Shown here piece by piece: positions 25,164-29,936 of a DNA stretch of 64,000 nt (positions within the stretch are counted from its first letter, which is position 1; every line of letters begins with the position of its first letter). The notes under the pieces are model-generated. The model made no database searches and was not told the DNA's origin. It saw only the letters and a list, made by a program, of their open reading frames with translations. The stretch lies in sequence record PZ534511.1. One strand, 5' to 3'. A program made the translations under genes and the position numbers. The stretch is from a phage.

Positions 25164-25469
25164 ATGGCTAAATCTAAAGTTGAACTGTTCACCTCTCTTC
25201 CTTCTGACACTGCAGAGCGTGATCGCCTTCGCAAAACAATCGAAGAACTGGTGGAACTCCAACTTCAGATTAAAGATCTGAAAGATGCCATCAAGGATAT
25301 CATTCTCGTTGAGAAGCAGGATCACCTGTATTCTCCTAAATTCATCAAATCTCTGGTGGCTACCGAGTTCGATATTCGCTATGAGGCTGAAAAACGTCGA
25401 GCTAAAATCGAAGAAGAGGTTGAGCACATGTCCGAGGCAGACATTCTGTTCAAACGCTCTGTAGAATAA
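25164..25469 (+). CDS. hypothetical protein
   Basis: ORF with AAGGAG RBS. Confidence 0.45.
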   Translation: MAKSKVELFTSLPSDTAERDRLRKTIEELVELQLQIKDLKDAIKDIILVEKQDHLYSPKFIKSLVATEFDIRYEAEKRRAKIEEEVEHMSEADILFKRSVE

Positions 25470-26523: not shown

Positions 26524-26732
26524 TCAACACACATGCATCTGAAGAGACATCCGAAGGAGTGACCATATGTCCCTTGGATGAGCCAGTTAAAGAGGAAAAC
26601 TTAGATTCTGAGGACTCTTCATCTTCGTCCCAGACAGATCCTGAGGCTGATGACCTGACGTGGGAGGACATCGTAGATATCTGGTTCTCTATTATGCCTG
26701 AGCACGAAGAGTTCAGAGGTGGTAGACTATGA
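26520..26732 (+). CDS. hypothetical acidic protein
   Basis: ORF; Ser/Asp/Glu-rich. Confidence 0.4.
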   Translation: MINTHASEETSEGVTICPLDEPVKEENLDSEDSSSSSQTDPEADDLTWEDIVDIWFSIMPEHEEFRGGRL

Positions 26733-26771
26733 AGCACCGAGCCCACACAGGTTCCTCATGCTAAAGCATGG

Positions 26772-27982
26772 CCTGAAGAGGCAAACGTGTATAATTCTTG
26801 TGCATTGGAACGTATAAAACCCTGTTCACACTCTCATTCCCAGAGGAGATTTTATGAAGATAGAAATATTTGGTGGGGCTGACAACACTCGTGGCCTGAT
26901 TTACCTTGAATTCGATGAATCATACCTGCCAGAGGTGTTAAATATAGACTCTGTTGCTGAGGCTTTGGGAGTAAACCCTAAAGAACTCCACTCTTGTGCT
27001 GAGATCGATGGTTGGGAAGAGACCATGAATATTGATTTCAGTGAAGTAGAGGATGAACCGCTGGACTGACACACAATTAGCTGCCCGGCTAAAGTGCTGG
27101 AAGCACCTATAACACATCTTTCAACTAAATTTCCTACCACCACAATCACTTACCTCCCACACATGACTGTTTGCTTGTTTAGTGAGCAGTCATGCCTTGA
27201 CATTCTTGCCTATCCTGATAAAATTAAGTTCTTCTCTTTTCTTTTACCGAGTAATTCGGGTTTTCTGTTCTCTTCGGTTTGAAGGGGTATGGAGATACAC
27301 CTGAGTGAACAGGGTGAACAACCGAACCATTGGCTATGGCATTAGCATGGCGAAGCGGACGGGTGACGAAAGAGTGGCCGGAGGACACCAGTCACTGCCA
27401 TATGATATATGGGTGATAACCTGAAGAGTCTGAATAAGTGTTTAAGTACCAGTCAGAGGAAAAGGTGAATGGTAGCCGAAGGGGGAGGGGGGTTTCTTGT
27501 ATCTTTAATTTGTATATTATGTATACACTTGTAAACCAATCTCATCTGAATCTGTTTACCACACAAGGCGGATAGAGACAAATATTACCTATTAAACTTG
27601 AATTATTTATAGAAAATACCACAACACCACTTAAGTCTTTGATTTTACACACAAATCTTACAGATATTCAGCCTCCCTATTTAACATACCTGTAACATAT
27701 TCCATACTCTACCTGTCTGATCAATTTACTCCCACCACATCCCCACATTTTCCTTGTCTGTACTACCCCTGCCCCGCCGGGAGTCCCGTCATATCTGGCT
27801 TTCCAGCAAATATCACACCCACAAATATCATTGCCTGAAGAGGGTTTCATCCCATAACACATGCCTTACCTGAAGAGCGCTTCATACACCACGTAAATTT
27901 TTTAATTGACCTCCCCTTCCCCGCCGGAGAGGTTGGCTTTTCCCACACAGACCTGAAGAGTCAGCCAGAAATATCTGAAGAG
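26772..27982. repeat. six dispersed copies of 9-mer CCTGAAGAG (one TCTGAAGAG)
   Basis: copies at 26772, 27420, 27834, 27869, 27952, 27974 on the same strand. Confidence 0.6.
26854..27069 (+). CDS. hypothetical acidic protein
   Basis: ORF with GGAG RBS. Confidence 0.45.
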   Translation: MKIEIFGGADNTRGLIYLEFDESYLPEVLNIDSVAEALGVNPKELHSCAEIDGWEETMNIDFSEVEDEPLD

Positions 27983-28610
27983 GGTCTAGTTCTGCCCTGT
28001 CATGAGCGGTAGCGACTGGAGTGCTGCCAGGCGGACGAAATGGGAATACTTCTCATTCTTATAATAATTCTCAAATATCGAGGCAGTGAGGCAAATTAAT
28101 AGGTGAGGCCGTTCACACAGTGGCACAACATTTGCAACCTATCTTGTGGGGGTGAATGAGAATACCTATCATTGTGAGAATAGTTATCATTACGGGCAAT
28201 TTAACATAATACCCATTATGCGCACCACTGGCGATACATACAGGGATTGATAACATGAGTTACAGTTTACGCATATAACAATCATATTTCTTACTATTTG
28301 TGTGGGATATAGTTAGCAGCCAATAGATTAGATATTGACCTGCAGACTTCCAACCGTCTAGACGTCTAAACGCCCACACAACAAGGATTATACATACATC
28401 GCTGAATGTAAACAGGGCCGCAAAAATGCTACCATACCAGTTTGTAAATTTTTCATGCAGCACTTGACAAAGAGGAGAAAAACTTGTCTGACACACCGGA
28501 CACAATATGGCACAATAACGACTGTTATTATTTCATGTTTCACTGTTCACGTATAGATTGTTCCCGCATAGACTGTTTACACCTTGACAGTTTACACAGA
28601 TATGATAAGC

Positions 28611-28860
28611 CATGACATTCGTTTGCATGAAAACAATTAGCAAGTTAACAATTAACAAGTTAATAATATATGACATAATATAAAAGCAGGGCAACTATTA
28701 GCAGATCTATAGTTGCCTTGCTTGTTATGTCATGATTAACTAAATACAAGGCAACTATGATCTGATTAATAGTTTGCAGACAAACTATCACGGGGGTGAT
28801 GGTTACTGCTTTTATATTATGTCGCGACTCCGTCGCGCCATGCCATTCGTTTGCATAGTT
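28611..28860. repeat. cluster of inverted and direct repeats (candidate origin or regulatory site)
   Basis: 18-mer CATGMCATTCGTTTGCAT x2; 21-bp inverted pair at 28668/28807; AAGGCAACTAT and its complement x4. Confidence 0.55.
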
Positions 28861-29470
28861 GCCTTATTGTTACAGGTAAAACAATTACATTATTAATTAT
28901 TTCTTATCTTTCTGTTAGTCATCTAATGATTCCAGTTAGTATAGTAACGTACAGTAAACATTAGACGACTAAAGATTTCTCTGCTTATGATAACTTGCCG
29001 TGACAATTTCGGACTGTTTACGAAAAATGTTGACACCTGAGCTGATTTATGTTATGCAATTTAAACGAATAATTATTTTATGCAGGTATTGACTATTCCG
29101 TTATTCTATGGTTGGAATAAATACTTAGCAAGCTATAGAATGGTGAGCGTACGTAAATTCTGAAATCTGGCGGCTATAGTTATACTCGATTTTTCGCATA
29201 GGACACGCTTTCGATGTTGTGTAAGTGTATGACTTATAAGAATTTTTATTTGTTGACAAGATATTGAAGATATGCATCAGGTTAAAATTTATGCAATAGC
29301 GGCATTACGTGCAATTTTGGGAGAGAAAACGGGCAAAAATGGCCTTGCTACCACACAATGAAAAATTATGCAATAGTTATTTTCCATGTATATTTGTACA
29401 GTGTGTGGGATTAATAGCTAGTCAATTATTCCACTTGCCAGGTAGGGCCGTTTATGGTAGGAGAAGAGCA

Positions 29471-29498
29471 GACAAAAAGAAAGGGGCCTAAGCCCCTT
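29471..29498 (-). terminator. rho-independent terminator for the minus-strand gene block
   Basis: GGGGC-uuag-GCCCC hairpin followed by U-run on minus strand, just after stop of 29517 gene. Confidence 0.55.
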
Positions 29499-29516
29499 GA
29501 TAATTCAGTTAAAAAA

Positions 29517-29936
29517 TTATAATGATTCGTATATTTCAAAAATCCGATTTGCCAGGTCGTTACGGTAGCGGAATTTTTCCTCACGTTTGATCATAAGATC
29601 TTTATAACCGTACTCTTTAAGCACTTCATTAACTTTATGGCGGCATACTTTCATATTATCCTGCGCGTCACCAATAAATCTGTTGCTATGGTGCATGGCT
29701 TTAATTTCTTCTTCCAGGACCAGGGCAACTATGCGGACCGGATCAAGCTGATAGGCGGTAACATCCATGCGGCATTGTAGACGGCTTTTAACGTCCGCCA
29801 CCGGATATACTGCAACCTCTTCCCCGTCAACATTGACAATAATTAGTTTACCATCGATTTCGAATCCTTTCGCCGCCGGACCGTGACAAAAAGCGTTATC
29901 AAAGCTATATGCCGGATTATCAGATTTAATGTTCAT
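29517..29936 (-). CDS. hypothetical protein
   Basis: ORF with GAGG RBS. Confidence 0.5.
   Translation of the reverse strand: MNIKSDNPAYSFDNAFCHGPAAKGFEIDGKLIIVNVDGEEVAVYPVADVKSRLQCRMDVTAYQLDPVRIVALVLEEEIKAMHHSNRFIGDAQDNMKVCRHKVNEVLKEYGYKDLMIKREEKFRYRNDLANRIFEIYESL

Follow-up and report, generated by a model that had tools for sequence, protein, structure and literature searches.

The rV5-like phages of Escherichia coli (genus Vequintavirus) are myoviruses with genomes of ~137 kb that have been widely isolated and have found use in biocontrol of E. coli O157, in cocktails for phage therapy and as part of the BASEL reference collection. On the rV5 genome map a locus between genes 163 and 164 is drawn as a 'non-coding' box lacking open reading frames (ORFs), and no promoter, RNA or conserved element is described there, the promoter table passing from P162 to P164 (Kropinski et al. 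2013, PMC3606486). For phage LL12 a direct terminal repeat of 459 bp has been determined (PMC6658697). The stretch analyzed here (64,000 nucleotides of sequence record PZ534511.1; the window) derives from a Vequintavirus and contains the same locus, with the terminal repeat (also annotated in the Gotham record) at 28030–28488. Within it, a module at 27163–27497 consists of an inverted repeat, a promoter and a conserved noncoding block of 267 nt (27231–27497, + strand), and is quite possibly, judging from its sequence, an unannotated noncoding RNA gene specific to Vequintavirus.

The block stands out by its conservation. Among 13 genomes it has a nucleotide diversity of 0.013 and 5.6% variable columns, compared with 0.045–0.095 and 16–28% for four neighboring genes, 0.083 and 29% for the 3-kb coding flank overall, and 0.080 and 26% for the stretch between the G-run at its 3′ limit and the terminal repeat; the terminal repeat itself has a diversity of 0.061, approximately five times that of the block, and 21% variable columns. 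No other stretch of the 7 kb examined varies as little, the margin exceeding chance, and the diversity of the block is also low in lineages whose flanks differ by 15–20%. Identity of the element is 97.3–99.7% in 119 GenBank records, and the adjacent 71-aa protein falls to 87% amino-acid identity. Because the block is far better conserved than the neighboring genes, its most likely interpretation is a new phage noncoding RNA; we infer that it is functional from its conservation and anatomy alone.

A sigma-70 promoter with an extended −10 (TTGACA-16-TGaTAAAAT; 27197–27224, + strand; an 11/12 match plus the TG) precedes the block. It is the top promoter match in the region and an orphan, with no ORF behind it, and both hexamers are invariant in the 27 sequences used for the substitution and coding analysis. 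Its TGnTAAAAT type of −10 is common to the published rV5 promoters, and it is missing from the rV5 promoter list, which covered only sequence upstream of genes (PMC3606486). Just upstream of the −35 hexamer the sequence contains the inverted repeat ATGACTG-N17-CAGTCAT (27163–27193), which may bind a regulator or serve as an upstream promoter element; it is invariant in the same 27 sequences, including a ~80%-identical IMG/VR relative, with the sole exception of one A in ECP26, and the bases before it (27150–27162) vary. That relative (IMGVR_UViG_3300010279_000001; ~80% identical over the flanking genes) is the most divergent available and is informative about the 5′ limit of the block: it retains both hexamers, has a rewritten spacer of 18 instead of 16 nt and changes at positions 27225–27230, and becomes identical again exactly at 27231, which sits 7 nt past the −10 and is the expected transcription start. 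The block thus has, as expected of a small RNA (sRNA) or other noncoding RNA gene, its own promoter with conserved −35 and −10 hexamers.

At the other end, conservation stops at a G-run. The last conserved bases of the module (27478–27492, + strand) comprise the 3′ arm of a predicted terminal helix and a G5AG6 tract (27481–27492) whose length is polymorphic between phages (G4AG6, G5AG5, G7AG6, G6AG8, G5AGAG5). Outside the conserved unit is an AT-rich segment (27498–27580; 20–34% GC) present as two unrelated alleles: Mangalyan, MiataMamis and the metagenome contig CYGL01000294 have an unrelated but equally AT-rich sequence for ~85 nt after the G-run, with homology returning near 27580. The DNA past the G-run is 20–38% GC in every allele, the replaced ones included.

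Low diversity could also arise in a segment with no function of its own, if a recombinational sweep had occurred recently or if gene conversion were frequent near the genome end. This explanation gains some plausibility from the pairwise comparison with the divergent IMG/VR relative, in which the whole ORF-free gap surpasses its coding flanks in conservation, and from the mosaic nature of the region, with allelic replacements and hot spots of insertion and deletion on both sides. Recombination cannot, however, yield a pattern in which the hexamers and the putatively transcribed part are kept while the spacer and discriminator are rewritten; moreover, diversity is low in all 119 records and in lineages with divergent flanks, and the substitutions fall in two small hot spots rather than being evenly spread. 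Because promoter sub-elements set the scale of the conservation pattern, a sweep is an improbable source of the low diversity.

The block does not behave as a protein-coding gene. The initial annotation had described the segment as lacking an ORF, which is true in substance: mechanical ORFs of 39–54 aa are present and are not conserved as coding. The 16 variable positions of the block (27231–27478, 27 sequences) are distributed 6/4/6 by codon position in frame 0, and a third-position excess appears in no frame. One or more small proteins would nonetheless be encoded here if automatic annotations were taken at face value, as ORFs of 39, 45 and 54 aa exist in the block region, some annotations call the 39-aa ORF (27305–27424) as a coding sequence (CDS), and hypothetical proteins are annotated here in NHEP1, MiataMamis and Mangalyan. 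This is very unlikely, given the codon-position pattern together with the behavior of the ORFs themselves. The 39-aa ORF has a GTG start and no convincing ribosome-binding site, and occurs as 12 protein variants, including one with a premature stop in VB-EcoM-WM, with ~11 changes that are non-synonymous or nonsense and 3 that are synonymous; an ATG at 27289 is missing in two genomes; and variation in G-run length frame-shifts the ORFs that cross it. No ORF in the block is both kept across relatives and marked by an excess of synonymous changes, and GenBank records leave the element unannotated or overlain only by spurious small CDSs.

The base composition is also unusual. As initially annotated, the segment 27290–27490 is GC-rich (0.507 versus a window mean of 0.431, sd 0.037), a value reached by only 2.0% of 201-nt windows, and it does end in GGGGGAGGGGGG, with CCGAAGGGGGAGGGGGG at 27476–27492. 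Still more anomalous is its purine content (0.657, a level found in 0.13% of windows); its GC skew is +0.35 and its AT skew +0.27. These coordinates mark a real feature with limits that are too narrow, the module extending over 27163–27497 and the putatively transcribed block over 27231–27497; the latter begins with a pyrimidine-rich 5′ leader (27231–27289; 34% purine), followed by the purine-rich body that contains 27290–27490.

Such a composition, next to AT-rich DNA, raises the alternative of a transcription-primed (R-loop) replication origin or end-replication element, in which a cis-acting RNA–DNA site rather than an RNA product is under selection. The purine- and G-rich transcript would stay hybridized to its C-rich template, G5AG6 would anchor or end the hybrid, and DNA synthesis would be primed by the RNA 3′ end and proceed into the neighboring AT-rich, readily melted DNA at a distance of 533 bp from the terminal repeat. 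We regard this as unlikely but as the most serious competing explanation. The promoter is strong, serves no ORF and leads into an AT-rich segment; the non-template strand is 65.7% purine with a GC skew that is extreme for the window; G5AG6 lies at the exact 3′ limit of conservation; the downstream DNA is AT-rich in all alleles; and the ORF-free gap adjoins the 459-bp terminal repeat. Origins composed of a promoter plus an unwinding element are exemplified by the phiOR and phiOL promoters of T7 and by oriF and oriG of T4, which supports the comparison. Against it, the predicted fold ties the G-rich body to the 5′ leader and would compete with a hybrid, the non-template strand past the G-run is C-rich and unfavorable for R-loop extension, 267 contiguous near-invariant bases are atypical of known origins of this kind, and the block contains no iterons and no DnaA-box cluster. 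To our knowledge no origin has been mapped in any Vequintavirus, which also counts against it. A switch in strand composition (skew) noted for rV5 at nt 104425–105475 begins here, nt 104425 corresponding to window position ~27481 (the offset being taken from the rV5 match to the element), and would suit an origin, but the rV5 authors ascribed it to convergent transcription (PMC3606486).

The predicted fold is specific to one strand. On the + strand the block (27231–27497) has a minimum free energy (MFE) of −85.2 kcal/mol (z = −2.09; 7 of 200 shuffled sequences fold equally well), compared with z = −0.36 on the − strand. The MFE, centroid and RNAalifold consensus structures share a terminal helix in which CUUCUCUUUUC at the extreme 5′ end (27231–27241) pairs with GAAGGGGGAGG at the 3′ end (27478–27488); the 5′ arm is invariant, and hence carries no covariation information. 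A long imperfect hairpin (27243–27318, + strand) is predicted between the pyrimidine-rich leader and a purine-rich arm, and its sole substitution, 27291 G to A, converts a G-U pair to A-U; a weak terminator-like hairpin (27247–27259) followed by GTTTTCTGTT overlaps it. A smaller hairpin is predicted at 27333–27351, and the predicted fold and RNAalifold both contain the hairpin GUCAC-UG-CCAUAU[GAU]AUAUGG-GUGAU (27392–27418, + strand). Complementary segments had been noted in the initial annotation and are present, the hairpin at 27392–27418 being an example and the long hairpin another once the 5′ leader is included. A GNRA-like loop proposed at GACGAAAG (27365–27372) fared less well: no prediction contains a stable tetraloop hairpin there, and the T at 27375 from which its short stem derives is unique to the window, all 26 of the other sequences having G.

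Substitutions show some relationship to this fold. Both stem arms of the 27392–27418 hairpin are invariant, and its apical loop and closing pair (27403–27407) form a hot spot with 5 of the 16 variable sites; a second cluster coincides with bulges at 27327–27332. Variable sites have a mean probability of being unpaired of 0.56 versus 0.36 overall (thermodynamic ensemble of the majority sequence; permutation P = 0.03), an enrichment that is only suggestive because the sites are clustered. Four of the six variable sites in consensus pairs keep the pair, and a possible compensatory case is a C-G to U-A double change at 27327/27358 in the single-sequence fold of the divergent IMG/VR relative.

The features that jointly point to an RNA gene are the promoter, conservation limits that coincide with the predicted start site and the 3′ tract, the noncoding substitutions and the strand-specific folding. 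The segment was first annotated as possibly a small structured RNA; that it is functional, noncoding and most probably transcribed agrees with the promoter, the conservation limits and the substitution pattern, and the word 'structured' finds little backing. Several observations weigh against the RNA gene interpretation. The fold z-scores are modest (−2.1 for the block and −1.2 for 27290–27490, the latter −1.21 unrounded), and substitutions at 27347 and 27403 break predicted pairs. The comparison across related phages yielded no covariation, the RNAalifold covariation term being −0.06 with no doubly compensated pair in the consensus, in a test that is without power because 245 of the 267 columns are invariant. 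Uniform conservation of paired and unpaired bases fits a function at the DNA level equally well. From 27260 to 28783 the + strand is devoid of terminator-like sites, one of which would be expected of an sRNA gene, and a T-tract that follows the G-run is lost in three relatives. The absence of any homologue detectable by sequence similarity beyond the genus precludes deeper comparison, and the literature searched yielded no Vequintavirus RNA-seq, Northern or 5′/3′ end data.

No known RNA family accounts for the block. As the initial annotation had anticipated, there is no tRNA, ARAGORN reporting 0 tRNA or tmRNA genes, and no match to an RNA family: the whole window has no match at gathering thresholds to any of the 4227 Rfam 15 models (including tRNA, tmRNA, 6S, RNase P, pRNA, hammerhead, group I/II and riboswitches), and both strands of 27000–28200 have none at E ≤ 10 with lax filters. 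Antisense targets within the 64-kb window are limited to chance-level matches of 12 nt or less. A role as a CsrA sponge was considered and rejected, the six GGA triplets being no more than composition predicts.

The suggestion that the element is ribozyme-like is unsupported. A self-cleaving hammerhead could be imagined from the motif CUGAAGA...GAAA at 27421–27466, as core sequences are present (CUGAAGA at 27421–27427 and GAAA at 27462–27465, with a 5-bp stem UCUGA/UCAGA between them) and a GUC lies upstream at 27392–27394. Helices I and III cannot be formed from the flanks, however, the 10.1–11.1 pair would be G-G, the same 8-mer occurs six more times outside the block without such a context, and no Rfam 15 ribozyme model matches even under the relaxed search. 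Lacking the three helices, the hammerhead assignment was rejected, and self-cleavage is the least credible of the explanations considered.

By sequence similarity, the element is confined to Vequintavirus. Matches to a 1.4-kb query around it (90–97% identity) were found in 121 phage records, almost exclusively from Escherichia phages of this genus, and blastn (word size 11) of the element against 50,697 phage records returned Vequintavirus only. Essentially all Vequintavirus records carry it, as a single copy (119, compared with 118 that have a near-identical DsbA-like neighbor). Searches of 5,426 E. coli genomes and, with a 23-mer, of GTDB genomes were negative; pattern scans of IMG/VR and metagenomes added just a few further close relatives, and three 18-mer matches in IMG/VR are unrelated chance occurrences. 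No copy was detected when the terminus gaps of Septuagintavirus A73 and Phapecoctavirus SKA64 were compared; these have no sequence in common with the gap upstream of ~29470 apart from a marginal 35-nt match of A73 to the terminal repeat, and A73, the sole genome scanned for architecture, has no analogous layout. Approximately 18 MG0656xx records named 'Campylobacter phage' (e.g. L035; one that was fetched is marked UNVERIFIED) match the region at ≥90% and the element at ~98–99.7%; as they carry Vequintavirus coliphage sequence, their host labels look wrong.

The module occupies a 2.4-kb ORF-poor gap (27070–29500) bordered by + strand genes on the left, the last at 26854–27069, and − strand genes on the right, starting with 29517–29936. 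The terminal repeat corresponds to the physical genome ends, so that the window covers the junction of the right and left ends; the element stops 533 bp inside the right physical end and its promoter is aimed at that end. The intervening spacer (27500–27950) is untranslated, C-rich and G-poor, with a GC skew of −0.39 to −0.52.

If the block is an RNA gene, it would be transcribed by host RNA polymerase early in infection, and the pyrimidine-rich 5′ leader would fold back on the purine-rich body, with the extreme 5′ end pairing with the start of the G-tract in a terminal helix that closes the molecule, as in many stable RNAs. Transcription would probably read through into the spacer and be stopped there by Rho, a mode of termination suggested by the lack of an intrinsic terminator and by an untranslated spacer rich in C over G, the composition used by Rho. 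Trimming of the 3′ end back to the terminal helix would leave a stable RNA of ~260 nt. Since nearly all bases are fixed, in loops as well as stems, such an RNA would be expected to engage a partner, protein or nucleic acid, through dense contacts and not to act by simple antisense pairing. It is conceivable, though doubtful, that it acts at the genome end, either as a primer or R-loop RNA (with G5AG6 resembling mitochondrial CSB II) that starts replication or regenerates the terminal repeat, or as a packaging RNA, a counterpart of phi29 pRNA in a terminase-type myovirus. The orphan promoter facing the repeat 533 bp away, the near-invariance of the block, the G-run at its 3′ limit and the AT-rich DNA beyond make a role at the genome end compatible with the data.

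Proximity to the terminal repeat also admits an explanation at the DNA level, namely a packaging or end-processing signal read by terminase or an accessory protein together with an array of CCTGAAGAG repeats, the promoter being incidental or serving to open the DNA, much as in T7 when transcription enters the concatemer junction. In favor of this, only 533 bp separate the end of the block from the left boundary of the repeat, seven copies of CCTGAAGAG lie on the same strand from 26539 up to 48 bp before the repeat, with one inside the block, and uniform conservation of every base fits protein–DNA recognition. Recognition sites are normally short, whereas here 267 contiguous bases are fixed and the terminal repeat is five times more variable; the conservation limits match transcription landmarks (the start site, and the hexamers but not the spacer), which is unexpected for a pure DNA site; and folding is asymmetric between the strands. 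A pure DNA signal is therefore improbable, if somewhat less so than a recombinational sweep.

The repeated motif, (C)CTGAAGAG, is present in 15 copies in the window versus 2.3 expected. Seven + strand copies lie between the last genes and the terminal repeat (26539, 26773, 27421, 27835, 27870, 27953 and 27975; array 26539–27982), the one inside the block spanning 27421–27428. Four of them (27421, 27835, 27870 and 27953) show little or no change across genomes amid variable flanks, and two others (26773 and 27975) adjoin hot spots of insertion and deletion. The motif might be bound by a protein or recognized by terminase. A further resemblance, which may be due to chance, is between GCGGACG...GACGAAAG in the block (27355–27372) and the first bases of the terminal repeat (GGCGGACGAAATGGG, 28030–28044).

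On the other side of the terminal repeat, 184 bp to its right, is a second conserved noncoding element (28672–28823), which may be an sRNA or a DNA cruciform. It has an 18-bp perfect inverted repeat (GACATAATATAAAAGCAG / CTGCTTTTATATTATGTC) around a long hairpin and a terminator-like hairpin (28783–28804); its modeled RNA fold (28684–28818) has a free energy of −54.2 kcal/mol (z = −8.09). Diversity is 0.019, and the sequence just upstream occurs in at least three unrelated alleles; rV5 and phita32 have a 33-nt insertion near the apex. Several TTGACA-type promoter-like sites on the + strand at 28464–29290 all face rightwards, towards genes on the opposite strand.

Two of the neighboring genes have relatives elsewhere. 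The 101-aa protein encoded on the + strand at 25164–25469 is kept across Vequintavirinae genera, and some records annotate it as a DsbA-like dsDNA-binding transcriptional regulator. It is not near the terminus in Seunavirus or Certrevirus, and because its genomic position varies by genus, synteny is unusable for locating the element elsewhere. The 139-aa hypothetical protein encoded on the − strand at 29517–29936 has homologues with 85–89% identity in Phapecoctavirus (subfamily Stephanstirmvirinae); in several records these lie near the record end, suggesting that a terminus-adjacent module has been exchanged between subfamilies.

The 2.4-kb ORF-free end region of these genomes has so far been labeled merely 'non-coding', and its best-conserved 267 bases appear to form a promoter-driven noncoding unit. 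The block offers a testable handle on a regulatory or structural RNA, a replication origin or end processing. For a large group of therapeutic coliphages, an RNA acting at the genome end, if there is one, would be a novel mechanism. Annotation is affected as well, spurious small proteins being called at the element by several pipelines; for engineering, the 'empty' region is an obvious yet probably unsafe site for cargo insertion.

The closest counterpart in placement is phi29 pRNA (RF00044), likewise a promoter-driven noncoding RNA of a similar order of size, encoded beside the genome end, transcribed towards it, having its 5′ and 3′ ends paired in a terminal helix (predicted here) and confined to a narrow phage group. 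The resemblance is one of placement only and nothing here shows a packaging role: the block does not match the pRNA model, and the phi29-like phages package protein-primed genomes that lack a terminal repeat, in contrast to the 459-bp direct terminal repeat and the terminase of rV5-like phages.

With ColE1 RNA II, T4 oriF and oriG, T7 phiOR and phiOL, and the mitochondrial LSP transcript, the locus shares a strong promoter without an ORF, a G- or purine-rich transcript (predicted here) and adjacent AT-rich DNA. A G-run anchors or ends the RNA–DNA hybrid of ColE1 RNA II, the mitochondrial CSB II that ends the LSP transcript is a G-run broken by one A, similar to G5AG6, and T7 phiOR also lies in a noncoding region near a genome end. 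Unlike ColE1-type origins, the block has no evident RNA I-like antisense regulator, nor were an RNase H site, iterons or DnaA boxes identified. The stable small RNAs of large lytic phages, such as T4 species 1 and 2 RNAs, and the enterobacterial sigma-70 sRNAs are comparable in having a promoter for host polymerase and a discrete intergenic noncoding transcript (predicted here); those RNAs have an intrinsic terminator at the 3′ end or arise by processing of tRNA clusters, whereas the block has neither a terminator nor tRNA neighbors, and compared with these small RNAs it is longer (~265 nt) and unusually purine-rich.

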